64,000 bases of DNA from Candidatus Bathyarchaeota archaeon. GTDB taxonomy: Archaea > Thermoproteota > Bathyarchaeia > Bathyarchaeales > Bathycorpusculaceae. The stretch lies in contig CAWEPZ010000011.1 in the NCBI GenBank assembly GCA_963811105.1, positions 800,001-864,000 on the forward strand. The letters are read 5' to 3'. A program made the translations under genes and the position numbers. A model generated the notes under the pieces. The model was given only the letters and a program-made list of their open reading frames with translations, did no database searches and was not told where the DNA came from. Below are positions 10,011 through 64,000 of this stretch, one piece after another (the stretch's first letter is position 1; each line of letters opens with the position of its first letter).

Positions 10011-10061
10011 TTTGTTTCCTTGTACTTCTAGAAACGGCTTTTACTATATAACGTTTAATCC

Positions 10062-10074
10062 ATAATACTTTGCA
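10062..10074 (-). promoter_or_regulatory. 13-bp upstream motif TGCAAAGTATTAT shared with paralog 8 (BRE/TATA-like or operator)
   Basis: Identical 13-mer at 46734-46746 upstream of the 44144-46660 gene. Confidence 0.45.
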
Positions 10075-10421
10075 TGATTTGCGAAAAGTGTGCAAAAATA
10101 TCTTCTTTCATGATTATGGATGAAAGAAGTATTATTCAATACATCGTCACTAAGATTAACATGATGGAACTTTATTATCAAGCGAAGCGGACATAAAAGG
10201 TTGCCAACCCCAAAAACCCACACGCGAACGACAAAGCGATTAAATGCAAGAACAGCGAATAGAACTTCGGTGGACGAAATAGAAAAAGAAAAGCATTGGG
10301 TAATCGCCCCCAACTTTATAAAGGGTTTTTTGGTGTGAAATACATTAACTTAGCAATCAAGGCACTTCATCTATTCTACATTTGAATTTTCTTCTACAAG
10401 AAAGAAATATTTAACGAGAAC

Positions 10422-10438
10422 AAAAAAGGAAAAAGGAA
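10422..10438 (-). terminator. U-rich terminator of paralog 4
   Basis: Minus-strand TTCCTTTTTCCTTTTTT after the stop at 10457. Confidence 0.5.
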
Positions 10439-10456
10439 TTTGTTTCTTGTTTTGTT

Positions 10457-16568: not shown

Positions 16569-16597
16569 CTTTTTTTCTTTCCTTTTTTATATAATGG

Positions 16598-16616
16598 GCA
16601 AGTTTTGAAAACTTGC
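16598..16616. promoter_or_regulatory. Perfect palindrome (operator candidate) upstream of paralog 5
   Basis: GCAAGTTTT-G-AAAACTTGC, 30 bp upstream of the start codon. Confidence 0.55.
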
Positions 16617-16801
16617 ACCTAAACGAACTAATCGTGTTAACTAATTAATATAATATAGTGGAAAGTAGCCACTGACGACACTAGACGCAATGTAACTTTT
16701 GAGCTCGAGAGGGTTTCACGAATTTGAAAACGAGGCAGAACTGGAAACTTTTTTAATCCAACCAATTACATTTATACTGTCCATTTTTTCTCTCCCTTTT
16801 C

Positions 16802-16924
16802 TTAGTTGGTTTGTTCTTGATCTTCATCGCTTGGATATTGATACTTGTAGCATTCTTCCAGATTCCAACAAACCCGACGTCGACGCAGTATCAGATGCCG
16901 CCGCCACCACCAGCAATGACCTAA
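16802..16924 (+). pseudogene. C-terminal fragment of a DUF996-like membrane protein
   Basis: Frame not in the ORF track: LVGLFLIFIAWILILVAFFQIPTNPTSTQYQMPPPPPAMT*, followed by a T-rich terminator. No start codon or upstream homology. Confidence 0.55.
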
Positions 16925-17158
16925 ACCCATTTTTTTCTCTTTTTTTATTCCCCTTAGACATGTTATCAAAAGTTTATTCTTCACTTTATCATGCAACGAA
17001 AACTCGTCATATCCATTTTTTGGGTTAGGGACAAGAATTTCCACGCACAAATTTCAAATAATTATCCATAATGACTCTTAATCTTAAATAGAAAAGCAAC
17101 TTAGAGCACAAACAACAAAATTTGCCTCAAACAAAGCAGGAGCAGAAGCCTCTTGCAC

Positions 17159-20100
17159 TTACCAAAGCTTCCAGGGCAACTCATCCATATACTCGTTGAG
17201 GGAGCGGATTGAGGTGCCATTTTTGCCTTTCTGTCTTAAAACATCTACAAGAGCAGATGCTAGTTGCAAGTTTGTTATGACTGGTATGTTAAATTCTACG
17301 GCTTGGCGGCGGATAATGTAGCCGTCGGTTAAGATGTCTGAGAAACTATTCTGCCGGTTAGCTATAGGCACGTTGATGACTAAATCTATTTTTCGCTCTT
17401 GCAAATAATCCAAAATGTTCGGGTTAACTTCGGCTTCCTTAACCTTGTAAAGCACAGTAGCGAAAACACCCCCATCATTGAGAACCTGAGCCGTATGCGC
17501 AGTCGCGTAAATCCTAAAACCCATATCAGCAAAAGCCTTAGCTATAGGCACAACCCGCTTCTTACGTTCCTCATCTCCACCAACACTTATGAAAATCGCA
17601 CCATCTTTCGGCGGGATATTAAATTCAGCAGACTGCAACGCCTTAGAGAACGCATCAGAAAAGTTTTCGCCTAAACATGCCACTTCACCAGTACTTAGCA
17701 TTTCAACACCCAGTACCGGATCAGCTCCGCTCAAACGCATAAAGCTAAACTGCGGAACCTTGACCCCAACGTGAGGTGCAAGAGTCATTGGAGAGAGTTT
17801 TACGCCGTCAATTTTCTTGCCAAGCATTGCCAGAGTAGCTAGCTCAATTAAGTTTATTCCGCGGGTTTTGCTGACAAACGGCATTGAACGTGACGCTCGC
17901 AGATTGCATTCGATAACGTTAACTACGTCATCCTTAACAAGGTACTGAATATTATATGGACCGTGGATATTGAGAGCTTTAACTATGCTCAGGGTGCAAT
18001 CCTCAATTTTTTTCTGAACCTCAATCTTCAAGGCTTGAGGAGGAATAGTCATAGTTGCATCGCCGCTGTGGACACCTGCGTTCTCGACATGCTCCATTAT
18101 GGCCCCTATTAACACGGTTTCGCCGTCAGAAACGCCATCCACCTCAACTTCTTTCGCACGATTAATGAATTTGCTGATAACTACTGGGTGATCAAGGGAA
18201 ACTTTCGCTGCTAACTTTAGGAAATTTTCAAGCGAAGTCTCATTGTAAGCCACACGCATCGCTGACCCAGAAAGCACGTAACTTGGACGCACAATAACTG
18301 GATAACCAATTTTCTCAGCGAACCGTTTCGCTTCGCCGATTGATTGAAGTTTACTCCAGCTTGGCTGACAAATCTGAAGCTGATCCAAAAGTGCACTGAA
18401 TTTTGAGCGATCCTCCGCTAAATCAACGTTTTCAGCTGAAGTTCCTAGCAGTTTTACTCCAGCATTGGAGAGTTTCATGGCTAAATTGTTTGGAATTTGT
18501 CCACCAACGCTAGTGATTACGCCTATCGGGTTTTCTTTCTCGTAAATATCCAAAATTCGTTCCGTTGAAAGCTCTTCAAAGTAGAGTTTGTCTGAAACGT
18601 CATAATCTGTAGAGACTGTTTCTGGGTTATAGTTTACCATTATAGCTTCTTGAATACCGTTCTTTTTAAGCGCCCAAATAGTGTTAACGCCACACCAGTC
18701 AAATTCTACGCTGGAACCTATTCTGAAAACCCCTGCGCCCAACACGATGACTTTGCTTGTGTCGCTTCTTAATTCAATGTCATCTTCGTCTCCACCATAA
18801 GTGAGGTAGAGATAGTTTGTTTTCGCAGGCCACTCAGCCGCCAAAGTATCAATCTGCTTGATAACTGGAAGAATATTTGCACTTTTTCTAAAAGTCCGAA
18901 TCGTAAACTCATTAGTGCATTGGCATTCTGCAATTTGTTTATCTGAGAAACCTATACGTTTTGCTTCACGAACCACTTCAGCCGCAGAGCCTTCCGCAAG
19001 GTTTAGCTGTCGCAGTTGTGCTTCCATGTTAATGATATTTTCAATTTTATGCAGGAAGAATGGATCTACGCCACTTAAACGATAGATTTCAAGGATGGGT
19101 ATACCCATTTTTATTGCTTTAACAAGTTTGTAGAGTCGCTCGTCTGTAGGGTTGGCAATTGCATCGCGTATTCTTGCTTCTGTTTCGGGCTCTGAGTCTT
19201 CTGGGTTGCAGACTAAACCTACTTTGCCAGTGTCGAGCATACGCACGGCTTTTTGCAGTGCCTCTTCAAAGCAGCGTCCAATTGCCATCACTTCGCCAAC
19301 GGAGCGCATCTGGGGCCCGACGTGACGATCAGCATTCTTGAATTTTTGCAGGTCCCAGCGGGGGATTTTGACGGTTATGTAGTCTAAGGCTGGTTCAAAA
19401 CAGGCTGTGGTTACTTCTGTTACTTTATTTATAAGTTCTGGTAGCGTATAGCCAAGTGTAAGTTTTGTGGCTATGTAAGCTAAGGGATAACCGGTGACTT
19501 TGCTGGCGAGCGCAGAGCTTCTGGACATACGTGAATTAACTTCAATTACCCGGAATTCTTCAGATTTGGTATTTAGAGCCCATTGAATGTTGCATTCGCC
19601 TACAATACCTAAGGCTCGTATGGCGTTAATTGAAACTGAACGAATCAGGTGGTATTCGCGGTTAGACATAGTTTGTGAAGGCGCAACCACAATCGAATCC
19701 CCTGTGTGCACCCCCATAGGATCGAAATTCTCCATGTTGCAGACGGTTAAGCAATTGTCTGCGTAGTCACGCATAACCTCGTATTCGACTTCTTTCCAAT
19801 GTCCAACATACTCTTCGATAAGAATTTGGCTAATTCTGCTTTGAGCTAAACCACGGGTTGCGATCTCCTTAAGTTCTTCGGCATTATGGGCAACGCCTGC
19901 ACCTTTGCCTCCAAGAGTATAAGCAACCCTAACAATAACAGGGAAACCTATCTCATGTGCCACCTCCAACGCGTCTTTTACACTTGTGGCAGATTTACTG
20001 TTTAATGGAGGAACACCAGCTTTGAGCATTGCCTGCCGGAAACGTTCGCGATCACCAGTGTCCTCGATCGCATGAACAGGTGTTCCCAAAACCTTAACAT

Positions 20101-44143: not shown

Positions 44144-46660
44144 TTATGCGTGTTTTCTGAGCAGTAGTATACCGACTATTGCGACTGCAATTATAATTGC
44201 AATTACTCCTGCCAAAACTGTTGTTACTACTGTATTGTTGACTGCGTCAAAAGTTACTGGTGACAATGTTGCTGTTGGAGATGTCCCTAGCGCATTGATA
44301 ACATTTGCGTATGTTTGTGCCCATGAGCTGCCGTAAGAGTTTGTGCCTGCGAATGTTGCTGTAATCTTGTAGTCGCCTGCAATTGTTGGAGCCCAAGTGT
44401 AACCGAATGTTCCGCTGACGTCGCTTGTGACTGTTGCAATGTGTATTGCGTTGCCGTTTGGATCAAGTGCATCAATGGATACTGGAACACCTGTCACTGT
44501 AACGTTATGCCATGGTCCGTCAATAGGCTGTTGCATATGCAAGTATTCCATGTATGTGTTCACTGTGTCGTCAGAAACGCATGCTTTGCCTGGCTGGGCT
44601 GGGGATTGGTCTAAGACTGTACCAGATATGATCGCGTTTGTTCCTATGGTAACACTAGTTTGTGGCGCTGAAACTGTTGTTGCGCTCTGGCCTTTGCCGA
44701 AAACATACATGAAGCCATCGTAAGAGTTGCTTGCGGTGAGATATCCATCAGATACTGCACCTTCGGTGAATGCTCCAGTTATGTTCCATACGCCTTTACC
44801 ATTTGTACAGTTTATGGCGCTTAGCTTCCATCCTCTAGCGATTGGTTGAGTTGGTGAGTGCTCAGAGTTTCCAACATACAGGATTCCGTTAGCAATAACT
44901 CCACCGCCATCGAAAGCCATGTCAGGATACCAAGGAGATTCGAAAGGTGCGCATGGTGATTCATATCGCCAGACTATCTTTCCAGTGTTCCAGTCAAACG
45001 CGTAGACACCTGCATAGCTAAATCTGTAGACATTGCCGTAGGCTGAAGCTACTGCGTAAGCACCGCCAAAGCCCCATGGATACGCCATCTTATCGCTTAC
45101 CCATGCTTGTTGTCCAGTTGTTAAGTCCCAGGCAACAAGTATACCGGATGTGTCATCTCGATCAGCGAAACAGTATTTACCATGATCTGCAACTGCTGTG
45201 CTTCCACTATAGTTTACATGGTCTGTTGTTACGTTCCACAGCACCTGTCCAGTTATCAAGCTAACACCTATCAAACGTGTTCCCATTTGAACTACTGTAG
45301 CATTAGCAGCGGCATTAGGTACGGCTTGAGCGGTAACAGATACACCTGCGTTGAAGTCACAGGTGCCTAAACTGGTGAACGGGAATGTAACGTTGCTGAT
45401 TATTCTTGCAGTGAAGTTATCGTTTGTTCCGACTACTGTCATTCCACCGTTTTTAACTTGGTCTTCGCATGTCCAGTTAATTAAACGGTTGCCAATTGCG
45501 GTGTTATTTGTCTGTATGCTTAAGACGTAGGGATCATTATAGTAGGTTCCTGTCATGCCTGTAACGTTATATATAACTGCGCCTGTAAATGGATCAATCC
45601 AGATTAGCCTCGCACCTATTGACAAAAGTCTGACACCTGGTTGCAAGTCAGCGGTATCGCCAACAACGTCAGGAAGGCCTGCAACGCCGTATGAAATAGC
45701 TGTAGGTGTGATACCACCCTGTGCAACTGGAATTTGGTAGTAAACATGTCCTGTTTGTAGGTCGTAGCATTCGGCACAGCTGCCAATTCCTGGCACTGTA
45801 ACGGTTTGGTAACATCTTCCATCATAGATCAAGCCTGGCGTACCGCTACCGGTCGTGAGGTCACCTTGTCCATTGGCTACTTTTTGGTCATCTCCTCCGA
45901 GAGCACCTGCAATTGAACCCTGTATTGTCCACAATATGTGTGCGCTGGTAGGTCCGACTGTGTATGGGCCCGCATATTCATAGTTATTCCCATATGGGTT
46001 TGGATAGTTGCCTAAGATTGGCCACCAGTCTCGGTTCAGTGTTGTTACGGGTCTTGTCCAGTAGTCCGTTGGAAGAGGCGTTCCTGGATAAGACCTGACT
46101 TGGTCTTGTTGTACAACGAATGTCATTGTTTGACTAACGCCTGGTGCATAGTAGCATGAAAGAGGTGCATTAAACACTTGACCGAACGAGGAATAGCCTA
46201 CGAGTTGACCTGAACTGTAGTTTCCAGCTGGATAATAGTTTCCAGGGAAATTAAACACAGCGCTCCAGTTGCCCGCTTGGTCTGGTATATAATAAGTATA
46301 TGCAGTTGCGTCTCCCTGATAAGAGTTGAATGGACCTAAGGTGTCTTTTGTTCCGTCTGGTTTAGTGAGGGTTACTGTGTATCCTGTTAGGAATCGTGCG
46401 TTTGTAACTGGTGGGTTCATCCACATGTTGATTAGCAATTGCTGGTTAACACCAATGGGGTTAGGGCTGATAGCGAGACCAAGGCTTGATTTAACTGTGA
46501 CATCAGGGGTAATACCTGCAGGAAGCGGTATGCCGTATGGGTTTTGTATGTTTGTGTAAGTAGCAGCGTTAGCAGTTGGCATTGTTATCAGTACTATCGA
46601 TGTAAAAAATAGAGCTATAATTGCTGCGGATTTTAGTTGGGTTAGGATTTTTTTATTCAT
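44144..46660 (-). CDS. Large secreted Ig/beta-propeller surface protein, paralog 8
   Basis: 838 aa. GAGGAG RBS, signal peptide, family blocks, TM plus RKHA, T-tract terminator at 44104-44121. Confidence 0.95.
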   Translation of the reverse strand: MNKKILTQLKSAAIIALFFTSIVLITMPTANAATYTNIQNPYGIPLPAGITPDVTVKSSLGLAISPNPIGVNQQLLINMWMNPPVTNARFLTGYTVTLTKPDGTKDTLGPFNSYQGDATAYTYYIPDQAGNWSAVFNFPGNYYPAGNYSSGQLVGYSSFGQVFNAPLSCYYAPGVSQTMTFVVQQDQVRSYPGTPLPTDYWTRPVTTLNRDWWPILGNYPNPYGNNYEYAGPYTVGPTSAHILWTIQGSIAGALGGDDQKVANGQGDLTTGSGTPGLIYDGRCYQTVTVPGIGSCAECYDLQTGHVYYQIPVAQGGITPTAISYGVAGLPDVVGDTADLQPGVRLLSIGARLIWIDPFTGAVIYNVTGMTGTYYNDPYVLSIQTNNTAIGNRLINWTCEDQVKNGGMTVVGTNDNFTARIISNVTFPFTSLGTCDFNAGVSVTAQAVPNAAANATVVQMGTRLIGVSLITGQVLWNVTTDHVNYSGSTAVADHGKYCFADRDDTSGILVAWDLTTGQQAWVSDKMAYPWGFGGAYAVASAYGNVYRFSYAGVYAFDWNTGKIVWRYESPCAPFESPWYPDMAFDGGGVIANGILYVGNSEHSPTQPIARGWKLSAINCTNGKGVWNITGAFTEGAVSDGYLTASNSYDGFMYVFGKGQSATTVSAPQTSVTIGTNAIISGTVLDQSPAQPGKACVSDDTVNTYMEYLHMQQPIDGPWHNVTVTGVPVSIDALDPNGNAIHIATVTSDVSGTFGYTWAPTIAGDYKITATFAGTNSYGSSWAQTYANVINALGTSPTATLSPVTFDAVNNTVVTTVLAGVIAIIIAVAIVGILLLRKHA

Positions 46661-48028: not shown

Positions 48029-49339
48029 TTAGGTTTTAGTTCTTTCCTTTCTCTTCATTCTAACATACAAATATGGAACAACTAAACCAATTGCTATTAT
48101 TAAAACAGCAACTAAAGTTAACGGCTGAGTTGTTGTCTGAGAAAATTGGGAGGATTGAGGCAGAATTCCCATTCCTGAACCAAAGCAGTAAACGAAACCA
48201 TCCTCAGAACCAACGTAAAGTTTTCCATTGACAACTGCAGGAGTAGATTTTACATTGAGTCCAGTTTTGTAGGTCCAGACCAAGTCTCCAGTTTTCTGGT
48301 TCAAAGCGTAAACTCGACCATCATCGGAACCAATGAAAATCATGCCGCTCGCAATTGTTGGGGAAGAAAGTACTGGTCCATCAGTTTTAAACCTCCATAC
48401 GAATGAGCCTGTGTTCTCATCAAGAGAATAAACATACTTATCCCATGACCCAAAAAAGACCTTGCCGTCAGCAACACCGGGAGAAGAAAGCACAGATAAA
48501 ACAGTCTGGTAATCCCATAATTGTTCTCCTGTACTTTCATTCAAACAATCTATCCAACCAGGCACAGCATGCTCGCCAATAAATACCCTACCGTCAACAA
48601 CGGCAGGCGAGCCAACAATAACACCTCGAGTTTCGTAGGTCCATATCAGTTTTCCTGTGCGCTCATCCAAGGTGAAGAATCGGTAAGTCGGATCCCAACC
48701 TCCTATGAAAACCTTGCCGTCAACAACAGCTGGAGGAGAAGTAACAAAACAGTTTGTGCTATAACTCCAGACAAGTTTTCCAGTCGTTTCATTCAACGCA
48801 TAAATGTACTTATCGGCACCGCCTATGAAAACCATCCCGTCAACAACTGCTGGAGAAGAAGCAATCTCCCACCCTGTTTTGAATTGCCACATCACAGTTC
48901 CATTTTTTGCATCAAAACAGTAAACTCGTTGATCACCTGATCCTATGAACACCTTTCCATCAACAACCGCGGGGGAATCAAAGAAGAACCAATTCCCAGT
49001 TTTATACCTCCAAATTTCGACTCCAGTGCTAGCATTCAAAGCATAGATGTTTCCATCACGCGAACCAATATACATGATGCCATCAACAATGGCGGGAGAA
49101 GAGTCGATAAGATCTTGCGTTTTGAATCTCCAAAGTAGATTGTTTGTCGTTGGAGCTGGGCTTAGAGTGAAACCTGAACGATTGAGATCATAGTGAAAAG
49201 TCGGCCATGAATATTGATTGCTATTACTATCTGTGCTTATTGCAGAGGCGCCTTCAAACGTAGCCAAAAAAAATGTGGAAAAAAAAATAGCCGAAATCAG
49301 GAGAAAAGTGGAAGCCTTTTGTATTCCATTACGTTTCAT
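48029..49339 (-). CDS. BamB/PQQ-repeat beta-propeller, secreted and C-terminally anchored
   Basis: WPTFHYDLNRSG followed by eight SSPAVVDG.VFIGS.D..VYAL...TG...W repeats; signal peptide and C-terminal TM. Start taken at the ATG after GGAG. Confidence 0.92.
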   Translation of the reverse strand: MKRNGIQKASTFLLISAIFFSTFFLATFEGASAISTDSNSNQYSWPTFHYDLNRSGFTLSPAPTTNNLLWRFKTQDLIDSSPAIVDGIMYIGSRDGNIYALNASTGVEIWRYKTGNWFFFDSPAVVDGKVFIGSGDQRVYCFDAKNGTVMWQFKTGWEIASSPAVVDGMVFIGGADKYIYALNETTGKLVWSYSTNCFVTSPPAVVDGKVFIGGWDPTYRFFTLDERTGKLIWTYETRGVIVGSPAVVDGRVFIGEHAVPGWIDCLNESTGEQLWDYQTVLSVLSSPGVADGKVFFGSWDKYVYSLDENTGSFVWRFKTDGPVLSSPTIASGMIFIGSDDGRVYALNQKTGDLVWTYKTGLNVKSTPAVVNGKLYVGSEDGFVYCFGSGMGILPQSSQFSQTTTQPLTLVAVLIIAIGLVVPYLYVRMKRKERTKT

Positions 49340-49766
49340 GTCTTTTTCTCCTTTCAAACCGGGTATAGCTTCATAGAGTATTATGGGTCTTAAAATAAAG
49401 TTTTCGTTAGTTCAGTCTTTGCACCATGAATTTCGCAACTCTCTTGAGTGAGCAAATCAAGGAAAGTTTCACATAACAACTCAGTCGTATTTTAGTAAAT
49501 AAACTCAAAACGAATGCACCTATGAACATAGTAAAGCAGCAAACTTGTTGATGTTATCATAAAATGCTTAGCATACTGAACCTCAGCAAAATAGCAGTCC
49601 CAATACTCGTTCATTCTTAAATGCAGAATTACAAATCTAACTTTTTATATAATAGGCCCTGTCCATTTAACACCGTATTGAACGAGAAATCGAAGAAATA
49701 TCTATGTGTTATGAACTCTTTCTTAAGATAGTGACGTATTAAAGATTGCTTTATTTTTTTCGTGAT

Positions 49767-53942: not shown

Positions 53943-53996
53943 AACCCTTGCTAAGGGTTATGAGCATAGGCTTAACTTTGGTTTGCCTCGTGCTCA
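53943..53996 (+). promoter_or_regulatory. Inverted repeats in the leader of paralog 9
   Basis: AACCCTT-GCT-AAGGGTT (53943-59), then TGAGCA..AGGC...GCCT..TGCTCA (53961-96) just before the GGAG RBS. Confidence 0.45.
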
Positions 53997-54016
53997 AATT
54001 TGGAGAAAAAACAAAA

Positions 54017-56611
54017 ATGAATTCAAAAAAAGTTAAAAAAATGAAATATTTTGCTGTTACCGTTGCAATTCTAATGCTAACGTCTATTCTACTGACAGTA
54101 AATCCAGTTCAAGCGCAAGTCGTTGACCAAGGCGGAGAAAACCCCAGCACTCCTGGCGGGTCAATTCCGCTTCCAGCAGGTGTCACTCCTGACCTATCAT
54201 ACCAAACCATTGCTTACATCAGCTTCAGACCAAACCCCATCGGAGTCAACCAGCCTCTACTCATCAACGTTTGGCTAGAACCACCAACACACGTAGCACG
54301 ATACTTCACAAAAGCCTTCCAAGTAACTCTAACCAAGCCAGACGGAACAACAGACTCTCAACTATTGACATCATACTACGGAGACACAACCTCGTACATG
54401 GACTACAACGTAAACCAAGTCGGCAATTGGCAGATTAGACTTGACTTCCTTGGCGGATACTTCGCAGCTGGAAACTATACTTCAAGTGCAGCATTCACCC
54501 TGAACCAGACATTAAACGCACCTCAAAGTGTTTACTATAAGCCGAGTACAAGCGGAACCTTCAACTTTACCGTGCAACCCAATGTAGCGCTCTCATGGCC
54601 CGGTGCTCCACTTCCAACAGATTACTGGTCAAGACCAGTGAACCCATTAAACAGAGAATGGTGGTCAATTCTAGGCAACTACCCAGGCGTAGGAGTCTCA
54701 TCTCCTCCAGGCAATCCAACCTGGCCAGCCGACACAAATCTACATGTTCAATCTCTCTATAACTTCGTCCCCTATGTGCAAGGACCATCAAGCTGTCACA
54801 TAGTATGGCAGCAACAGACCGCAATCTCAGGCATGATAGGAGGCACCTTGTATCAGTTATCCAACACTGGTGTCAGCGGCACTCCAAACATAATCTATGC
54901 TGGCAGAGTTTACGCTACCTATGCAAAACCAGGAACTGGAACGACTGCAGTGACCTATTGGAAATGCTATGACCTTCAAACTGGACAACTTTACTGGGAA
55001 AGACCATTGGCAACAGGTGAATCAGCCCCAACACAAATTATCTACATTACAAGGACAGTATCTGCTGTTACTGGAGACACCGCTTCTCAGAGAAACCTAG
55101 GCGCAGCACTGATGTTTGTAGGTGGAGGACGAATAGTAACCTACGACCCATCGACAGGCTCTGTTATATGGAACGTTTCAATATCGCCCTTTACAAGTGG
55201 CACCTTCATTTCTAACGATGTAACTGCACCCGACTTCTTGACTATACAAACTCTCGGTTCAGGCTCAAACACACAGTACCGTCTAATTAACTGGACTATA
55301 ACAGGCGATATAGCTTACCCAGACTTAGTCAACCGCAGAGTAGGTGTAATTAGCAACGTATCATTTCCATCAAGCAGCTTAGGCACTATGGACCTCGATG
55401 CTGGCGTAACTGTTCTTTCAACAGCTGTAAACATACCTGCCTCAGTAGGCGTCTCTTATAGCTACATTTTAACTGGCGTAAGCCTCATAACAGGACAAGT
55501 ACTATGGAACATAACAACAGATGCATCCTCAGGCTTGGGTGGCTTTTACAACCCGAGCACCGCATGTGCTGACCACGGATTATTCGCAGTTCGCTTGAAT
55601 GACGGATTATATCATGCTTGGAATATTCAGACTGGAGCAGTGGCATGGGTCAGCCCATTATCAAGCTATCCATGGGGAGAATTCGGCGGATACGACACAT
55701 CATCAGCCTACGGCTTGCTTATCTACCCACAATACGACGGTGTAGTAGCCTATAACTGGACGAACGGTCAAATCGTGTGGAACTGTCAATACAAAGCTCA
55801 ATATCCATACGACAATGCTTTCGGCGAAACTTATCCATACGACGGTGCTTGCATGATTGCTGACGGAATGGTTTATGTAGCCAACACTGAACACTCACCC
55901 AGCCAACCAGTGGAGCGAGGATATGCACTAAGATGCATAAACGCATCCAATGGTCAAGTGATATGGAGTATATTAAACACAATAAATCAAGCTGCGATCT
56001 CAGATGGCTACCTAATAGGCATGGATATCTATAACGGCATGCAGTACGCGTACGGCAAAGGATTAAGCTCCACTACAGTCACATCATCTCCAGCGGTCAC
56101 AACACAGAGCAACCAAGTATTAATTCAAGGCACAGTGTTAGATCAATCCCCTGCACAACCAGGCACTCCATGCGTATCACATGAATCAATGGAAACACAA
56201 ATGGAATACTTGCACTTGCAACAGTCAATCCAAGGCGTCGCTGGTAATGCAACCATAACAGGAGTTCCAGTTCTGTTAACCGCTATAGGCTCTGACGGCT
56301 CAGTATACAATATCGGCACAACTACAACCAACGGATACTTTGGTACATTCGCATATGCTTGGACAGCACCAAAAGTTGACTCCTACACAATAACCGCTTC
56401 ATTTGCAGGAGACGACTCTTACGGCAGCTCATCAGCAGCAACGGGGCTATCAGTAGGTGCAGCCGCATCAACAACACCTACACCAGCTACACCAGCACCT
56501 TCAAACCTCGCCACCACAACAGACTTGATGACCTACATAGTTGTCGGAGTAATCGCTATAATCATCGCTATAGCAATAGTTGGCTTTGTACTCTACAGGA
56601 AAAAACAATAA
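54017..56611 (+). CDS. Large secreted Ig/beta-propeller surface protein, paralog 9
   Basis: Start reassigned to ATG 54017 after GGAGAAAAAACAAAA. Family blocks, TM plus RKKQ. Confidence 0.95.
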   Translation: MNSKKVKKMKYFAVTVAILMLTSILLTVNPVQAQVVDQGGENPSTPGGSIPLPAGVTPDLSYQTIAYISFRPNPIGVNQPLLINVWLEPPTHVARYFTKAFQVTLTKPDGTTDSQLLTSYYGDTTSYMDYNVNQVGNWQIRLDFLGGYFAAGNYTSSAAFTLNQTLNAPQSVYYKPSTSGTFNFTVQPNVALSWPGAPLPTDYWSRPVNPLNREWWSILGNYPGVGVSSPPGNPTWPADTNLHVQSLYNFVPYVQGPSSCHIVWQQQTAISGMIGGTLYQLSNTGVSGTPNIIYAGRVYATYAKPGTGTTAVTYWKCYDLQTGQLYWERPLATGESAPTQIIYITRTVSAVTGDTASQRNLGAALMFVGGGRIVTYDPSTGSVIWNVSISPFTSGTFISNDVTAPDFLTIQTLGSGSNTQYRLINWTITGDIAYPDLVNRRVGVISNVSFPSSSLGTMDLDAGVTVLSTAVNIPASVGVSYSYILTGVSLITGQVLWNITTDASSGLGGFYNPSTACADHGLFAVRLNDGLYHAWNIQTGAVAWVSPLSSYPWGEFGGYDTSSAYGLLIYPQYDGVVAYNWTNGQIVWNCQYKAQYPYDNAFGETYPYDGACMIADGMVYVANTEHSPSQPVERGYALRCINASNGQVIWSILNTINQAAISDGYLIGMDIYNGMQYAYGKGLSSTTVTSSPAVTTQSNQVLIQGTVLDQSPAQPGTPCVSHESMETQMEYLHLQQSIQGVAGNATITGVPVLLTAIGSDGSVYNIGTTTTNGYFGTFAYAWTAPKVDSYTITASFAGDDSYGSSSAATGLSVGAAASTTPTPATPAPSNLATTTDLMTYIVVGVIAIIIAIAIVGFVLYRKKQ

Positions 56612-56816: not shown

Positions 56817-58172
56817 TCAGATTTTTGCAGTGTTCACAATTTTATTTTTTTTATTTTTTTCATACACGAAGGCGCATGCTATAACTATTGCGATAATAAA
56901 TACTGACACGATACTGTAAACTTCAATTGAAAGGTCTTGTTCAGCTCCTAAGCAATATAAATAACCATCATCAGACCCTATGTATAGTCTTCCATTGGCA
57001 ATTGCAGGAGAGGACTTGATTAATCCTTCAGTTTTATACTTCCACGTATACGCTCCAGTTTTTTCGTCTATACAGTAAGTACATTCGTCTTCTGAACCCA
57101 CAAAGACTTTGCCCGCGGCAATAGCCGGAGAAGAAATTACTGCATCACCTGTTTTAGATTTCCATACAGTTGATCCATCTCCAGCATTCAAACAATAGAC
57201 AAATCCATCATTTGAACCCACAAAGATTTTACCTTCATCAATAGCAGGAGATGAAGACATCGGCAACTCGAATTCTCTAGCCCATATTATGGCACCTGTA
57301 TTTTCATTTAGACAATACATCCATCCAGGCACACTAGTTTCGCCTATGAATACCATGCCGTCAATAACGGTAGGAGTGGCGGAAATTATATTCAATCGAG
57401 GCGAGAAACTCCATAGAAGATCTCCAGCGTCAGCGCCAAAGCAGTAAAACTTGAACCCTGGAACCAAAGAACTTATGAAAACCTTGCCGTCAACGACTGT
57501 AGGAGAAGCCATCCGAGTTCCAGTTTTGTATTTCCACAATAAGTTCCCTGAAGTTGCATTTAAGGAATAAACATAAGTGTCAGAACATCCGATGTAGAGT
57601 TTACCGTCAACAACTGCTGGAGAAGAATCAAAAGCACCACCTGCTTGGTACTTCCAAAATAATGATCCATCACTACCATTAAAAGAATAGACGTATCCAT
57701 CATTTGATCCTACAAAGACTCGAGCATCAATAACAGTTGGAGATGAACCTTCTATCTGGTTTCCTGTTTCAAACTTCCATATCTGTGCTCCTGTAATTGC
57801 ATTTAAGGCATAGACGAAGTGGTCTCTAGAACCTACGTAAACAATACCATTAACTACGGCAGGAGAAGAATCTATTGCTCCTCCAGTTTTAAATCTCCAC
57901 AAAAGATTGTCGGCAGTTGGCGCTGGGCTTTGGGTGAAGCCAGTATGAGAGATATTATTATGGAACATAGGCCACGAATATTGATAATTATCGGCACTAG
58001 CTGACAGCGCATTGCTCGCTAGAATTGGACTAAACACGGAAAAAGCAACTACAAGAACTACAAAGAAAGCTGTAAATTTCCCCCCTCCTTCGAACAATAT
58101 TCTTTCCTTCTTTTCTTGTAGATTAGCTATTAGAGCAAAACGCAAACTAAGATAAGTCTTTCGGGATTTCAC
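56817..58172 (-). CDS. BamB/PQQ-repeat beta-propeller, secreted and C-terminally anchored
   Basis: QYSWPMFHNN..HTGFTQSPAPT..NLLWRFKT and SSPA repeats; close paralog of 48029-49339. True start is probably downstream (~58097). Confidence 0.92.
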   Translation of the reverse strand: MKSRKTYLSLRFALIANLQEKKERILFEGGGKFTAFFVVLVVAFSVFSPILASNALSASADNYQYSWPMFHNNISHTGFTQSPAPTADNLLWRFKTGGAIDSSPAVVNGIVYVGSRDHFVYALNAITGAQIWKFETGNQIEGSSPTVIDARVFVGSNDGYVYSFNGSDGSLFWKYQAGGAFDSSPAVVDGKLYIGCSDTYVYSLNATSGNLLWKYKTGTRMASPTVVDGKVFISSLVPGFKFYCFGADAGDLLWSFSPRLNIISATPTVIDGMVFIGETSVPGWMYCLNENTGAIIWAREFELPMSSSPAIDEGKIFVGSNDGFVYCLNAGDGSTVWKSKTGDAVISSPAIAAGKVFVGSEDECTYCIDEKTGAYTWKYKTEGLIKSSPAIANGRLYIGSDDGYLYCLGAEQDLSIEVYSIVSVFIIAIVIACAFVYEKNKKNKIVNTAKI

Positions 58173-60292: not shown

Positions 60293-60886
60293 CTATTTAT
60301 TGAGGGAAGGTAGTAGGTTTGCGCCCATGCCGATTGTCCAAATGAGGTTTGGGTAGACAATCATTCTTTCCATTCCCCCAACACCGATTCCTAAGTAATC
60401 TGGTCGTGTCGTAGCAAAAAGAAAGAGAGCAAAAAGTGTTGCAAATCCCAATATTACCGAAAAATATCTGAAAGGCCCCTTAGTGATTCTGTAAGAAGTA
60501 ACTGCAGCTATTCCACCAAAAATAAAGGAAACGATTGCGGCGATGGAGTGAATAAGAGGAACTCCATTAACCAAAAATGTGTTCTCTGGAAATATTCCAA
60601 CTCCAATCGGACCTAAACCCGCCAAGACAAATAAGCTTGTGATTACGCCCCTTTTGAATTCACGTTGAATAAAATATGCACTTATCAAAATCGTTAAGCC
60701 TAACAAGATTATTGATGGATTAAAGATTGTGGCTGAGGGCTTATTCCATACTCCCAAATCACTAATGTAGTTTCTAGATACGCTATAATTTGGGTAAACC
60801 GCTTCCGCGACAATCATTCCCAAGGTAAACTGCAAACCACCGACAAGAAGCAAAGCTCCAGCAATCGTTTTGTTGTCAGAATCCAT
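60293..60886 (-). CDS. DUF998 family membrane protein
   Basis: YPNYSVSRNYISDLG, GVGIFPE, H...A, GGMER. Confidence 0.85.
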   Translation of the reverse strand: MDSDNKTIAGALLLVGGLQFTLGMIVAEAVYPNYSVSRNYISDLGVWNKPSATIFNPSIILLGLTILISAYFIQREFKRGVITSLFVLAGLGPIGVGIFPENTFLVNGVPLIHSIAAIVSFIFGGIAAVTSYRITKGPFRYFSVILGFATLFALFLFATTRPDYLGIGVGGMERMIVYPNLIWTIGMGANLLPSLNK

Positions 60887-60985
60887 AATACAAATGCTAG
60901 TGAGATAGTATTTAACGATTTTTTATCAGGCGGGTCTACTTAAAATCGTTTTTTATGTGGGTCTTTACGGCAATAAGTTTTTATG

Positions 60986-62089
60986 TTATATCATGTTTCT
61001 ATTTTTGTGGTTTTGTCGTTTTTGACGAGTTTCTGCGCGACTTTTTTCATTGAGAATTTTGTTGTTTATCATTTCCCAAAGGTCAATTTCTGGAATGGGT
61101 CTGAAACCGGGACAAAATTGTTCCTTAGCAATCTCATAGATTGCTTGGTTAATTGGCATTGGAACACCTACATTGCTGGCTAGTTTAAGCATGTATCCAC
61201 TTAGTGATTCCAGTTCTGTGGCATGTTTTCCACTGAATACGTCTTGTGTCATGCTGGTGGGGCCGACCCTGTTTACGATGAAGTCGTGGAGAGGATTTGT
61301 GGGTGATTCTGGAATGTTTACTGCTGTTTGGATATCGTTCCAGGAGGGCATGCTGCCGAGTTTGTGCTCTTTAAAGCCTGCTGCTTGCAGTACTTGGATT
61401 CCTTCTCCTAGAAGTCTTGTTGTCATGTGCACAAGGATCTTTTCTGACTCGACTGATCGTTTTCGGAATCCTACTAGAGCCATTAATGCGTTTATGAGGT
61501 TAATTGCTAGTTTGCAGTGAACAGCATCTTGTAAACGGGTTGTGATTTGGCATTCTAATCCTGAAGATAAGACGGTTTTAACGCGTTTAAGTTCGAGTAT
61601 GAGATCGTTGTTTGGTGTTCCAATAATTAGGTATCCTGGTTTTACATATGCGGCTTTCCCGACACTGTCTCGCCACGCGTTGTAGCAAACGACGCCGTAC
61701 ATTGCTCTAGAAAAGTACTTGGGTATAATCTGCTGGTTTTCTACGCCATTCTGAAGGCTCGCAACGATTGGCTGGCAATTTCCAAGATGGTGCCGAAGCG
61801 TTTGTGCTGTATGGTCAAGATCATAGTTTTTCACGGTTATGATTATGATGTCTGCAGACGGAATCTCGTCTATTGATTCAATTACTTGTACTGGTATTGG
61901 AGCAGTTGTGGCTTCTTGACCTATTTTGTAAAGTTGTAACCCGTGTTTTTTAATCGCATCGACGCTTTCGCCTCTGGCTAGAAGATGCAAGTTTTTATTT
62001 TGAGGAAAAATCCAGCCTGCTACGCTTAAACCGATTGCCCCTGCTCCGACGATTAGAACTTTGGGTTTTTCTTTCAAGGGATCACACAT
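60986..62089 (-). CDS. panE: Ketopantoate reductase (ApbA/PanE) family protein
   Basis: GAGAIG, ITVKNYD, LQNGV, KLAIN..N, SMTQD....ATELE..SG. Confidence 0.8.
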   Translation of the reverse strand: MCDPLKEKPKVLIVGAGAIGLSVAGWIFPQNKNLHLLARGESVDAIKKHGLQLYKIGQEATTAPIPVQVIESIDEIPSADIIIITVKNYDLDHTAQTLRHHLGNCQPIVASLQNGVENQQIIPKYFSRAMYGVVCYNAWRDSVGKAAYVKPGYLIIGTPNNDLILELKRVKTVLSSGLECQITTRLQDAVHCKLAINLINALMALVGFRKRSVESEKILVHMTTRLLGEGIQVLQAAGFKEHKLGSMPSWNDIQTAVNIPESPTNPLHDFIVNRVGPTSMTQDVFSGKHATELESLSGYMLKLASNVGVPMPINQAIYEIAKEQFCPGFRPIPEIDLWEMINNKILNEKSRAETRQKRQNHKNRNMI

Positions 62090-62111
62090 GGATTTTTTTT
62101 CTTCGGCGTGC

Positions 62112-62540
62112 TTACCAACCTAGTATTAATTTGAATATGCCAAGTGCTATTCCCATAGATACTACGGCGCTCAGTGCTGTTCCCCCGATCAATGTCGGAT
62201 AAAACTTGCTTGACTGAATTCCTAGTAAACGGCCGATAATTGCTACCTGAATGGGCGAGAGCACAAACACCCCGGCTATTATGCCTATCAAAGCATATTT
62301 GTTAATGAGTTTTTGACCTCTTGCTGTTCTTTTTTCGAGCCAACGTCTCAAGCCTTTTTTCCATTCTAATAATCTATTGATCAAGAAGATGGTTGCAAAA
62401 ACAGTTAAAATATTTATCGTGAGTGTCGTTGCAAAAACCAACAGGGGGTCGAATCCAACGGCCACGCCATATAGCATGCCTCCTCCGCTTTCAAAGACGA
62501 CAGATATGAGAATATAGACGTAAATCTCGAACATCCACAC
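62112..62540 (-). CDS. Small multi-TM protein (COG2426 / small multidrug export-like)
   Basis: Four hydrophobic segments; ESGGG..YG...G..P and KYALIG patterns. Confidence 0.55.
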   Translation of the reverse strand: MWMFEIYVYILISVVFESGGGMLYGVAVGFDPLLVFATTLTINILTVFATIFLINRLLEWKKGLRRWLEKRTARGQKLINKYALIGIIAGVFVLSPIQVAIIGRLLGIQSSKFYPTLIGGTALSAVVSMGIALGIFKLILGW

Positions 62541-62896
62541 ATCACTTCATAGATATTTGTTTAGTCCAATAAGGCTTATTCCACAGCCGTCGCGTGTGGT
62601 TTGAATTGATAATAAGAAGTATATATTTCATATTAAATTAAAGGACAGAATAATTGGTTCTTCTCAAGTACGAATGACGGTTTTTCAACATATTTCAACG
62701 TAGTTTCACGATAGGCCTCCACTTTATCTCAGTTGAAAAAAGATTTGTTATGATCGCTTTTGACCTGAGGAGTAGTTTTCAATAAGAAATAGTTGTTTTT
62801 TGATAGTTGGAAAGGTAAAGTTTGATGGGGTGTCGCAAGGAATAAGCAACGTTAAATACTGAGCTAAAATAACGCTAACTTAAGTAGTTGACATTT

Positions 62897-64000
62897 ATGC
62901 CCGAATACTTATCCCCTGGAGTTTATATCAAAGAAATAGAAATAGGCGCAAAACCCATCGAAGGGGTAAGCACCAGTACCGCAGGATTTATAGGGGAAAC
63001 AGAAAGAGGACCCACACTGCCCAGATTAATTACAAGTTGGTTAGATTATCAGAAAATTTTTGGCACCTATTTTGGTGGCACTAAGTATTTGCCTTACGAA
63101 GTTGAGGGCTTCTTTAATAACGGTGGTAAGCGGTGCTACATCGCAAGAGTAGTCTCTTTTGGAGTAACAAAAGCTATTTTGACTCTCAATGTTAACAGTG
63201 TTGCAGCGCTAGTTATTGAGGCTATAGGAGAAGGTGGCTGGGGACAGAGGATCGCTGTTAGAACTAGAAGGAATGCTGACAGTAAAACTTTCAAGTTAAC
63301 CGTTTTCTATTGGAAGAACAATATTGTAGCTGCCTTTAATCCTGATGACAAAGCGAATAAGAGTCTATTGCAGCCAGCTATATCAGAAGTCTATAGCAAT
63401 GTTTCAGTAGAAAAAGCCTCGCCAAATTATTATGAAGCAGTAGTCAACAGCAACTCTAACCTAATTAGAATAAGTAACCCAACAAACGGTTGTCCTGCAA
63501 TTCCTGACGATGCTGCAAGCGACATACCTATGCTTCTAGGGAATGTAACTGGCATTGAGACATCACCAACCTTGAATGACTTTAAGGGAGATAGCACGCT
63601 ACCGTCTGGAAGTAGGCGAGGTCTGCTTAGCTTCGAGGATATAGACGATATTTCGATACTCTATGTTCCAAACGTGCAAAGTATCAGCGGTTTGTCTGAA
63701 GCAGTTATCGCCCAATGTGAGAAGCTGAGAAATCGTTTCGCAATTATGGAGGTGCCAATTGGAAACTCAACCACAAGCTTCATCATGAGCACAAGAGCCA
63801 CTATGGAAACAAAATATGCTGCGTTATATTGTCCATGGTTAAAAATAATAGATCCGGTGTCCGGCAGTGAAATTCTTGTTCCACCGGGAGGATTCATAGC
63901 AGGGATATATGCTAGAAGCGACGCTGAAGTTGGAGTTCATAAAGCTCCCGCAAACGAAGTTGTTATAGGGGCGCTCAACCTTGAATATGCCTTAAGCGAA
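62897..64000 (+). CDS. Contractile tail sheath protein (eCIS/Afp-PVC type), runs off the right edge
   Basis: Not in the ORF track because there is no stop in the window. 368 open codons: MPEYLSPGVYIKEIEIGAKPIEGVSTSTAGFIGETERGP...EGFFNNGGKRCYIARV...CEKLRNRFAI...YAALYCPWLKIIDP...VPPGGFIAGIYARSDAEVGVHKAPANEVV. Confidence 0.95.
   Translation, partial: MPEYLSPGVYIKEIEIGAKPIEGVSTSTAGFIGETERGPTLPRLITSWLDYQKIFGTYFGGTKYLPYEVEGFFNNGGKRCYIARVVSFGVTKAILTLNVNSVAALVIEAIGEGGWGQRIAVRTRRNADSKTFKLTVFYWKNNIVAAFNPDDKANKSLLQPAISEVYSNVSVEKASPNYYEAVVNSNSNLIRISNPTNGCPAIPDDAASDIPMLLGNVTGIETSPTLNDFKGDSTLPSGSRRGLLSFEDIDDISILYVPNVQSISGLSEAVIAQCEKLRNRFAIMEVPIGNSTTSFIMSTRATMETKYAALYCPWLKIIDPVSGSEILVPPGGFIAGIYARSDAEVGVHKAPANEVVIGALNLEYALSE

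Follow-up and report, generated by a model that had tools for sequence, protein, structure and literature searches.

Does a sheath gene that runs into the edge of a sequenced stretch mark the start of an injection machine? This question is raised by the last gene of the window studied here (the whole stretch of 64,000 nucleotides that was analysed), which the initial annotation took for the beginning of an extracellular contractile injection system (eCIS) locus in a Bathyarchaeia-like archaeon. The open reading frame spans 62888..64000 on the plus strand and is still open at the window end. We place its start at the ATG at 62897 rather than the TTG at 62888 because homologues begin with MPEY. 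Counted from this ATG, the window holds the first 368 of the 515 codons of a contractile injection system (CIS) sheath gene (62897..64000, plus strand), recognized from its ORF, Pfam domains, PDB matches and AF2/Foldseek comparison. The full gene lies at positions 862897–864444 of contig C11 of the genome (G000), with its stop codon 444 bases beyond the window end. The start codon, the 368 open codons and the quoted sheath motifs (MPEYLSPGVYIKEI, PIEGVSTSTAGFIGETERGP, FFNNGGKRCYIARV, RFAI, YAALYCPW and VPPGGFIAGIYARSDAEVGVHKAPAN) could all be traced in the ORF and its translation. The proposed host also held up, as the closest sheath relatives include Candidatus Bathyarchaeota archaeon.

The 367 amino acids encoded in the window score 30.1 bits against Phage_sheath_1, just below the Pfam gathering cut-off of 31.4 by which the call was judged. 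Over the full 515 aa the score rises to 55.8 bits for Phage_sheath_1 (PF04984), and Phage_sheath_1C (PF17482) reaches 64.4 bits against a cut-off of 26.9. NCBIfam assigned no family to this sheath or to the other sheath of the genome, encoded on contig C2. Taken together, the two Pfam domains and the matches to CIS sheath structures bear out the suggestion of a CIS-type sheath, an observation far beyond chance.

In sequence as well as in fold, the nearest solved relative is the Cis2 sheath of Halogeometricum borinquense (9EZM). The 9ezm_A chain was matched at E 6.8e-142 in the PDB sequence search, and it was also the top Foldseek match (E 4.7e-50, TM 0.70, 44% identity) to our AF2 model (pLDDT 74.6, pTM 0.74). 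Both proteins are archaeal and combine a sheath core with an extra inserted domain; in the tree, haloarchaeal sheaths share a large clade with the relatives of our protein. The next comparison is the cytoplasmic CIS sheath of Streptomyces coelicolor (8BKY, 8BL4, 9GTP, 9GTS), whose sequence matches residues 1–512 (8bky_A, full length, E 8.7e-114) and whose structures match the fold at E 1e-24 to 1e-29 (8bky_A, E 2.4e-29). The Afp2-4 proteins of Serratia Afp (6RAO) and Pvc2-4 of Photorhabdus PVC (6J0B) share the core fold and C-terminal domain (PDB matches at E 1e-33 to 3e-54) but belong to lineage I, are shorter one-domain sheaths and occur as several paralogues in one operon.

An alignment with 51 homologues covers the whole protein from M1 to E515, so that both terminal arms are present, and residues M1, P2, E3, Y4, P7, G8 and V9 as well as K495, P496, A497, E498, F499 and V500 are near-invariant in them. 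In the monomer model the arms (residues 1–26 and 469–515) are of low confidence. As in other sheaths, the protomer would be expected to polymerise by N- and C-terminal strand exchange between adjacent subunits. Self-assembly in the absence of a tube is known for sheath proteins, examples being T4 polysheath and VipA/B.

The genes around the sheath are cellular. As anticipated, those upstream are divergent and lie on the minus strand: a small multidrug export protein family gene at 62112..62540 (Sm_multidrug_ex, 45.2 bits), a ketopantoate reductase-like gene (ApbA/PanE) at 60986..62089 (ApbA 91.6 and ApbA_C 60.1 bits) and a DUF998 membrane protein gene at 60293..60886 (76.6 bits). The Pfam scan of flanking ORFs covered 14 downstream of the sheath in L003 and 11 in L004, together with 6 upstream ORFs of the window and 13 that lie farther upstream in it. 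Besides the three families above, it placed BsuPI, CBM96 and PQQ_2 upstream, while M50 peptidase, MPG glycosylase, CarboxypepD_reg, H+-PPase, SDR, CorA, PFK and helicase followed downstream, where all 15 ORFs are cellular. Over the 40 kb downstream and the 26 kb upstream, the scanned ORFs included no CIS part: neither a tube gene (PF06841), nor baseplate genes (gp25, Baseplate_J), nor a spike, a Pvc16/DUF4255 cap or an AAA+ ATPase. Likewise, when 16 proteins of the genome's own eCIS cluster were used as tblastn queries, only the sheath itself matched at this locus. The reading of the gene as the head of an eCIS locus is thus not borne out; what emerges is a lone sheath with neither tube nor baseplate, an outcome named in advance as refuting that reading. 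The gene stands by itself among cellular genes and does not open an operon. The absence of portal, terminase, capsid and integrase genes noted upstream does hold, and it extends over the 40 kb downstream.

The intergenic region upstream of the sheath (62541..62896, plus strand) measures 356 bp, close to the approximately 355 bp first reported. It is AT-rich (GC 0.33) and probably carries the gene's own promoter, judging from TATA-like motifs at −45 (62852) and −32 (62865) relative to the ATG; that these coincide with two weak genome-wide TATA-like peaks adds little weight. No Shine-Dalgarno-like motif was found in 62541..62896, and a T-rich tract follows the stop codon. Probably the gene is still expressed, as a single-gene transcript that is translated. 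Its composition is native, with a GC3 of 0.396 at the 46th percentile and a codon score at the 32nd percentile of 1007 long ORFs. Insertion by a mobile element was considered and rejected, since neither tRNA genes nor bracketing or att-like repeats were found around the sheath.

Such isolation is unusual for this kind of gene. Of the 142 related sheath loci that could be assessed, 135 have a tube gene on the same strand at most 3 kb downstream, and in most related loci an AAA ATPase and Pvc16 are found 1–5 kb upstream and a spike and gp25 downstream. Sheaths of about 510 aa from Methanosarcinales, Methanoperedens, Methanobacterium, Bacillota and Nitrospirota align over 100% of the length at 56–64% identity, have the same domain layout and fall into the same 80-row clade (support 99), but they are flanked by AAA ATPase/Pvc16, tube, spike and gp25 genes, and the lone sheath is not. 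Haloarchaeal CIS likewise comprise at least 14 structural genes in a cluster, with a membrane anchor and toxins, whereas our gene has no cluster. According to the accessible text of PMC11566945, the H. borinquense CIS is a membrane-anchored archaeal system of 'clade IIa' with T6SS-like action, and placement in this clade is judged by the phylogeny of Cis11/Afp11 and by the presence of a conserved gene for the membrane anchor. As neither a cognate Cis11 nor an anchor lies beside the lone sheath, its likeness to clade IIa extends to sheath similarity with 9EZM only. The S. coelicolor CIS, as outlined in the accessible part of PMC10066040, is encoded by a complete bacterial cluster and acts inside the producer, causing cell death.

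If the machine is not here, is it elsewhere in the genome? The assembly is a Bathyarchaeia metagenome-assembled genome of 3.49 Mb in 15 contigs, 96.7% complete with an estimated contamination of 4.3%. It does encode a complete eCIS, at positions 460788–493076 of contig C2, so the proposal of an eCIS in this archaeon is right for the genome and wrong for the locus at 62897. The C2 cluster holds one sheath gene, of 704 aa, and the sole gp25 match of the genome (C2:479220). Outside this cluster, the only CIS-like pieces genome-wide are the lone sheath and a tube pseudogene with three in-frame TAA codons at C11:666022–666450, which is closest to tubes of the canonical lineage that the lone sheath also belongs to (33% identity to L147 and 25% to L052). 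Searches of the whole genome with proteins of canonical-lineage clusters revealed no second set of tube, baseplate, spike and cap.

The lone state is not confined to this assembly. An independent metagenome contig (L117) carries an orthologue with 75% amino acid identity, and its positions 1–160, covering the 5′ end of DUF998 and upstream DNA, match C11:860767–860926 at 87% nucleotide identity, so that DUF998 anchors the synteny of the two loci. About 120 nt before the sheath ATG are 82% identical and the 126 nt after the stop codon 78% identical, and no tube is found in the 1.7 kb downstream of the sheath in L117. The same flanks and the missing tube indicate that the orphan state was inherited and is not an assembly artefact. 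L117 has no Sm_multidrug_ex and panE genes between DUF998 and the sheath, and beyond the immediate flanks the gene contexts of the two diverge. In the tree the sheath belongs to a subclade of 10 members, nine of which are protein records of full length (506–532 aa); the lineage has therefore stayed open through roughly 30% amino acid divergence. Some of these members (P0003–P0010) may still reside in clusters.

Other lone copies have fared worse. Those of L117 and L040 carry frameshifts, and those of G012 (contig C5) and G031 carry stops. Both frameshifted copies shift to +1 near codons 162–166; in the DNA alignment, however, one has a 1-nt insertion and the other a 2-nt gap, some 25 nt apart. 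A programmed frameshift was rejected on account of these differing indels, which point to independent lesions or to assembly errors; the latter could explain both. We also considered an island shared with contig C13 of G012, where a sheath and tube pair lies among PQQ_2 proteins, and rejected it for lack of synteny, because those PQQ_2 proteins match other sites of the genome at only 29–42%.

Selection on the lone sheath appears to be relaxed but not absent, to judge from codon and residue comparisons. Against L117 it has a dN/dS of 0.19–0.31 (dS 0.47–0.61), compared with 0.11–0.14 in in-cluster control pairs (dS 0.65–0.76). Of 163 near-invariant columns it keeps 151, while 43 in-cluster canonical sheaths keep 155–163; the altered residues include E12K, D167S, R345V and K368E. 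Near-invariant columns account for 19 of its 117 differences from L117, as against 0–5 of 19–159 differences in canonical pairs. With P0003, which is 96% identical, 5 of 19 differences fall in such columns, where 6.0 would be expected at random and a canonical pair of equal divergence has 1 of 19. Differences from L117 and P0004 are nevertheless depleted about two-fold in near-invariant columns (p ~1e-4).

These results lead us to regard the lone sheath as probably the last intact piece of an otherwise lost second CIS locus, Cis2-like and of lineage II. As the other parts of the sheath's own lineage (tube, baseplate, spike and cap) are missing from the genome and constraint on the gene is relaxed, the protein most likely no longer has a role in injection. 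In view of the broken copies in relatives, it would be decaying slowly.

Several observations run against a relic. The ORF is intact over 515 codons, can be aligned along its whole length with functioning sheaths at 56–76% identity and has a dN/dS well below 1; near-invariant columns are still partly avoided, the subclade has stayed open, and both the upstream and the downstream flanks are conserved in L117. Furthermore, decay is far more advanced in the presumed partner tube than in the sheath, which suggests that the sheath has been kept for a reason.

Such a reason might be domestication: a selected role that requires neither a baseplate nor a tube of its own, for instance as a self-assembling cytoplasmic tubule or scaffold, with the altered conserved residues reflecting a change of function and not decay. 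We consider this unlikely, although several observations favour it. The frame is intact, near-invariant sites are partly avoided at the dN/dS given above, and the orphan state is older than the split from L117. The genus also offers a parallel: among the 119 other species genomes, 29 retain an unbroken lone sheath of about 360 aa, and this persistence keeps a domesticated role in play. At 6 of 6 loci examined (3 of them by Pfam) this short sheath has a conserved cellular neighbourhood of Fasciclin/DinB, HerA and NUDIX genes, and where dS is measurable its dN/dS is 0.09–0.13. In addition, 32 of 38 sheath-positive genomes of the genus have no gp25. Like the 515-aa sheath, the short family stands alone among cellular genes and falls into the same 27-row clade (support 95), but it lacks residues ~90–240 and forms a separate clade on a long stem branch (0.67), and for this reason its persistence cannot be transferred to the longer gene. 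In the present genome the slot of the short sheath is empty, with 96 bp between the flanking genes. A one-domain Bathyarchaeota sheath homologue of 321 aa is mentioned in the accessible text of PMC9230969.

For the 515-aa gene itself, no partner, regulator or conserved neighbour indicates a function, and its surroundings past the immediate flanks are not common to G000 and L117. The closest pair (with P0003) does not avoid conserved sites, albeit in small numbers, and lone copies have repeatedly been broken or deleted. The wider proposal, that Bathyarchaeia keep lone sheaths of 515 aa and, independently, of ~360 aa as domesticated baseplate-free polymers whose altered residues mark a change of function, is to our mind slightly more doubtful again. 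If true, it would mean that an archaeon recruited a phage-tail sheath fold for a cellular role other than injection, for example as a tubule in the cytoplasm, a scaffold or a decoy in defence.

Could the protein instead serve the eCIS on contig C2 in trans, co-assembling with or replacing its 704-aa sheath in the manner of Afp and PVC paralogues? The C2 cluster has a single sheath gene, solved Afp and PVC particles hold three sheath paralogues (the Afp2-4 and Pvc2-4 chains), and the strand-exchange termini of the two sheaths are alike (PGVYI.E at the N-terminus and APLKPAEFVI at the C-terminus). Even so, this is improbable. The two proteins share 34% identity over the core and lie in clades that are far apart (stem lengths 1.47 and 0.5), and the lineage of the lone sheath usually pairs with tubes only ~30% identical to the C2 tube. 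Known systems encode paralogous sheaths inside the cluster, while this gene lies on another contig. Moreover, congeners such as G006 and G017 have a C2-type cluster without the lone gene; their best match to it is a sheath of 566–570 aa adjoining their tube gene.

That the sheath truly heads an eCIS operon hidden by a misjoin upstream or downstream is very improbable. The assembly is metagenomic, with the contig number and contamination given above, and Logan contigs from four public DNA runs (C11:862001–867000), at 150–508 bases, are too short to bridge either junction with at least 31 letters on both sides. L117, however, has the same 5′ and 3′ flanks without a tube, the gene agrees with the genome in codon usage and GC, contig C11 spans 1.5 Mb, and the 3.49-Mb assembly holds no second set of parts of the sheath's lineage. 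Just as improbable is the tail remnant of a myovirus prophage, for although the Pfam sheath families are common to phage tail sheaths, the 26 kb upstream and the 40 kb downstream contain no capsid, portal, terminase or integrase gene, tRNA genes and att-like repeats are missing, the nearest relatives all belong to clusters of CIS type that include Pvc16, AAA ATPase and eCIS_core, the nearest structures are CIS sheaths (E 1e-114 to 1e-142, compared with only 1e-9 for phage T4 gp18) and in none of 157 loci does the sheath clade adjoin head or packaging genes.

With the lone sheath read as the relic of a second CIS, the result for the locus is mainly corrective: finding a sheath gene where a window ends does not suffice to call an eCIS. 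As a by-product, a complete eCIS was found in a Bathyarchaeia genome, and gp25 is present in 13 of 120 species genomes of the genus. In their accessible text, CIS surveys report archaeal loci from one archaeal phylum only or from ten archaeal genomes, and none of them names Bathyarchaeia (PMC8213781, PMC12210884, PMC6899500). Our literature search returned nothing relevant on orphan or stand-alone tail sheaths, and the accessible text of papers linking Bathyarchaeia to contractile injection describes no such lone-sheath locus.

The genus offers a natural series in which to follow the dismantling of injection machines and to ask if any single part is retained for another purpose. An orphan tube occurs in 22 of 25 congeners with an orphan sheath and in 12 of 56 without one. 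The two were rejected as a cognate pair, because in G014 and G001 the orphan tube shares 70% identity with the C2-type tube and is thus of another lineage than their sheath. Overall, isolated sheath and tube genes derived from two or more CIS lineages are strewn across the genus, some of them intact despite long divergence and others in visible decay.

The ORF listing of the window contained a single long plus-strand ORF in this region, running from a TTG at 62888 to the window end. We took ATG 62897 as the start codon because homologues start with MPEY. The initial annotation had counted 368 codons from this ATG, and all of the motifs it quoted are present in the translation; the intergenic region that it put at ~355 bp measures 356 bp (62541–62896), up to the preceding divergent gene. 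Read onward in the genome, the ORF stops at C11:864444 (C11 being the contig that holds the window, at positions 800001–864000), which gives a product of 515 aa. For Phage_sheath_1, the in-window portion alone scored slightly below the Pfam cut-off (30.1 vs. 31.4 bits). The full-length protein exceeded the cut-offs of both Phage_sheath_1 (55.8 bits) and Phage_sheath_1C (64.4 bits), which confirms the earlier identification of a sheath gene.

Full-length homologues of ~510 aa share 56–76% identity with this protein and belong to records named Methanoperedens, Methanosarcina, Methanolobus, Methanobacterium, several Bacillota, Nitrospirota, and others. Compared with solved structures, the protein was closest in sequence to 9EZM, the Cis2 sheath of Halogeometricum borinquense (E 6.8e-142), and the Streptomyces coelicolor CIS sheath (8BKY/8BL4) aligned across residues 1–512 at an E-value of about 1e-113. 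The Pvc2 and Afp2-4 sheaths matched far more weakly, and T4 gp18 reached an E-value of only about 1e-9. An AlphaFold2 model built from 52 sequences had a mean pLDDT of 74.6, with low confidence limited to the terminal arms (residues 1–26 and 469–515) and two loops. Foldseek again placed 9EZM first (E 4.7e-50, TM 0.70, 44% identity) and the Streptomyces sheath second. This is a real sheath gene of the Cis2-like type, and it is complete. It is worth stressing that the available text of PMC11566945 describes the 9EZM system as archaeal, membrane-anchored, contact-dependent, and of 'clade IIa', and that of PMC10066040 describes the Streptomyces CIS as working in the cytoplasm, so the label 'extracellular' is not assured even for relatives located within CIS clusters.

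In a quick IQ-TREE analysis of sheaths (105 rows, 272 columns), the protein paired with P0003 (96% identity) within a 10-row subclade (support 99) that also includes P0004–P0010 and the independent metagenome contig L117. This subclade is nested in a 27-row clade (support 95), whose remaining members include further Bathyarchaeota records and the congeners' short lone sheaths. Another tree, built from the 216 C-terminal columns, recovered the identical subclade with support of 98; in it, three partial sheaths with adjoining tubes (L119, L171, and L193) fell outside that subclade.

The surroundings of the gene do not agree with its proposed role as the start of an eCIS locus. The 14 ORFs directly downstream encode an M50 peptidase with PDZ, a methylpurine-DNA glycosylase, a CarboxypepD_reg domain protein, an H+-pyrophosphatase, a short-chain dehydrogenase, CorA, phosphofructokinase, a DEAD/MZB helicase, RNase_H_2, and an aldo-keto reductase, with a few showing no family or only weak Pfam matches. 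The subsequent 20 kb carries HSP20, PALP, nitroreductase, and several large PQQ_2 beta-propeller proteins. The upstream side has Sm_multidrug_ex, ApbA/PanE, DUF998, BsuPI, CBM96, and PQQ_2 proteins and, farther away, glycosyltransferases, a histidine kinase, and eRF1. No tube, baseplate, spike, cap, or AAA+ ATPase was found among the Pfam-scanned ORFs on either side, including the 14 downstream ORFs and the following 20 kb. These surroundings are cellular, and the idea of an eCIS locus beginning at 62897 is refuted.

As controls, we fetched 157 related sheath loci from public genomes and metagenomes, 142 of which extend at least 700 nt past the sheath and could be assessed. A same-strand tube gene lies within 3 kb downstream in 135 of them, and most control loci have an AAA ATPase and Pvc16 upstream of the sheath as well as a spike and gp25 ~5 kb downstream. 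The seven tube-less exceptions are L040, L074, L096, L103, L117, L126, and L134. Four of these (L040, L117, L126, and L134) belong to the same 27-row clade as the lone sheath, and L096, a Bathyarchaeota record, lies elsewhere in the tree.

Three comparisons bear on selection. Between the lone sheath and L117, dN/dS was 0.19 in the N-terminal part (dS 0.61) and 0.31 in the C-terminal part (dS 0.47), as compared with 0.11–0.14 for in-cluster sheath pairs at dS 0.65–0.76; dN was about equal on the two lineages (0.04–0.085 each). Next, of 163 near-invariant columns (at least 93% conserved among 43 in-cluster sheaths), those 43 keep 155–163 (median 161), as against 151 in the lone sheath and 145–153 in its subclade. 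The lone sheath departs from them by E12K, L32I, D167S, R345V, K368E, N375D, Q425R, V440M, A456G, R472H, R484K, and I486V. L123, whose sheath adjoins a tube gene, keeps 161, and L126, with no tube in its 4.1 kb downstream, keeps 159. Finally, we redefined the conserved columns without each tested pair, so that about 29% of differences would be expected there at random. Pairs drawn from the 43 canonical sheaths placed 0–5 of 19–159 differences at conserved columns, and orphan-subclade pairs 15–19 of 86–123. For the closest pair, the lone sheath and P0003, the count was 5 of 19 (random expectation 6.0), as against 1 of 19 for the equally divergent canonical pair L056/L057. Taken together, these substitution patterns clearly point to a constraint that is relaxed, not gone; the closest pair, with its small numbers, gives a hint that no constraint may be left today.

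We consider that the lone sheath is probably a relic of a second CIS that has been lost. The surviving gene would probably still be translatable and its product able to self-assemble, under relaxed constraint and with no role in injection. Its composition is genome-typical: GC3 is 0.396 (46th percentile) and the codon score is at the 32nd percentile among 1007 long ORFs. Relative to the ATG, TATA-like motifs at -45 and -32 fall on two modest peaks that such motifs show genome-wide, no Shine-Dalgarno-like motif was found ahead of the ATG, and a T-rich tract (TTTTAGTTTTCTTCTT) lies ~70 nt past the stop, with the M50 gene starting 347 nt past it. The promoter-like motifs and the tract are weakly suggestive of a single-gene transcription unit. 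A domesticated, stand-alone role for the protein seems unlikely to us.

The genome does encode an injection machine. Whole-genome family searches of the assembly (3.49 Mb, 15 contigs, 96.65% complete, 4.3% contamination) located a second sheath, a strong tube match, and the sole gp25 match, all on contig C2. There, a complete eCIS-type cluster, as judged by Pfam, occupies C2:460788–493076 (L011, L012) in two divergent sub-clusters. The first side comprises a 704-aa sheath, a tube (Phage_T4_gp19, 154.9 bits), a T4_baseplate/DUF6760 protein, Pvc16_N with a TIG domain, and an AAA+/WHD ATPase. Beyond a 6-kb gap follow Phage_base_V (spike), a CIS_tube protein, gp25, two Baseplate_J proteins, DUF6519, and an eCIS_core (DUF4157) protein; within the gap, the minus strand encodes a 1027-aa protein whose N-terminus resembles eCIS_core (C2:471338–474421). 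The earlier proposal of a headless injection machine in a Bathyarchaeia archaeon therefore holds for contig C2 and fails at the 62897 locus. The C2 sheath shares 34% identity with the lone sheath across the C-terminal 300 residues, and stems of 1.47 and 0.5 set their clades apart in the sheath tree. We regard use of the lone sheath in trans with the C2 machine as quite improbable. Just past the cluster (C2:494087–494384) lie a spike fragment (75% over 36 aa) and a tube fragment with one internal TAA, which may be left over from a duplication or from a cluster that was replaced.

That the lone arrangement might be an assembly artefact is very hard to credit. L117, an independent assembly and the only member of the 10-row subclade whose flanks were compared at the DNA level, matches our contig immediately around the gene: its bases 1–160 correspond to C11:860767–860926 (87%; the start of DUF998), its bases 153–300 to C11:862776–862920 (82%; 120 nt before the ATG and the first codons), and the 126 nt past its sheath stop to C11:864442–864569 (78%). 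No tube was found in the 1.7 kb downstream of its sheath. A sheath lacking a tube, with matching immediate flanks, is thus present in two independent assemblies, and GC3 and codon score are native. The orphan state is inherited, as these alignments show. None of the Logan contigs from four public DNA runs was long enough to span either junction. Farther downstream, L117 runs into a gene located on contig C3 in our genome. The latter also has an extra 1.85 kb (window 60927–62775; panE-like and Sm_multidrug_ex) between DUF998 and the sheath upstream region, either an insertion there or a deletion in L117. A prophage remnant is just as hard to credit, as capsid, portal, terminase, and integrase are absent from the Pfam-scanned flanking ORFs, as originally claimed for the upstream side, and no tRNA genes or bracketing repeats were found around the gene.

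When we searched the genome with the C2 cluster proteins and those of six canonical-lineage loci, only two CIS-like pieces turned up outside the C2 cluster (the fragments just beyond it apart): the lone sheath and a gp19-like tube pseudogene with three in-frame TAA codons (C11:666022–666450; L008:1441–1920), located between an AsnC-type regulator and CDGSH/thioredoxin genes. The top matches of the pseudogene are canonical-lineage tubes (33% and 25% identity), which makes it a candidate for the tube that once partnered the lone sheath. It is much more decayed than the sheath, which retains 57–64% identity to in-cluster relatives.

Across the genus (120 species genomes), 38, ours among them, carry a sheath homologue at an E-value of 1e-60 or better, none above 64% identity; gp25 is present in 13 of the 120 and missing from 32 of the 38. 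A ~360-aa lone sheath without residues ~90–240 (49–54% identity) is intact, with no stops, in 29 of 119 congeners and broken by stops in G012:C5 and G031. Its neighbourhood (Fasciclin/DinB, sheath, two unknown genes, HerA, NUDIX, FtsX, ABC) is conserved in all six examined loci, based on Pfam in three and tblastn in all six (L027–L031 and L033, from G008, G001, G014, G002, G010, and G012:C5). Its dN/dS is 0.09–0.13 where dS is measurable (1.3–1.6). In our genome nothing occupies this slot, and the genes on either side of it are 96 bp apart (C9:266183–272923). Five genomes with this sheath, one of them a closed single contig, had no match to gp25 or Phage_base_V and only one had Pvc16_N; all have a tube gene hundreds of kb from the sheath. 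Intact single tubes of this kind lie at L035:64–558 (G014), L037:639–1133 (G001), and L039:57–533 (G008). Those of G014 and G001 share 70% identity with the C2-type eCIS tube and differ in lineage from their sheaths, so the dispersed sheath and tube are no matched pair. All three tubes are far from any sheath and in genomes without gp25 or spike matches; the tube adjoins a CIS_tube gene in G014 and a Pvc16_N gene in G008. A third arrangement involves a sheath type of 382–391 aa, followed directly by a tube at L026:9103–10697 (G012:C13) and divergent to tube, CIS_tube, and AAA genes in L096; neither gp25 nor a spike was found in G012. From these gene complements, we read the genus as holding debris of at least two CIS lineages, some pieces being surprisingly long-lived.

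In the available text, PMC8213781 and PMC12210884 each report CIS loci from one archaeal phylum, PMC6899500 lists ten archaeal loci, of subtypes IIa and IIc, in addition to 13 split ones, and PMC9230969 notes homologues of the sheath in assemblies of Bathyarchaeota, among them one of 321 aa. That text describes neither a Bathyarchaeia CIS cluster nor lone sheath genes.

Damage is frequent among the lone sheath copies of relatives. The L117 copy has a 1-nt insertion near codon 162, and L040, a Bathyarchaeia record (60% identity, cellular genes downstream), has a 2-nt gap about 25 nt beyond that site. These different indels (L117:750–770 and L040:640–660) both cause +1 frame changes near codons 162–166, which could stem from a hot spot for mutation, from decay in each copy independently, or from errors in assembly. 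The surroundings of the lone sheath are also unusually rich in large PQQ_2/beta-propeller proteins, several of 838–887 aa (window 44147–46660, 48032–49357, 53948–56608, and 56817–58172; L004:4755–7322, 8306–10933, and 16550–19093). The family is multi-copy in these genomes, and the G012:C13 sheath–tube pair and the L134 sheath adjoin members too (29–42% identity, not orthologous).
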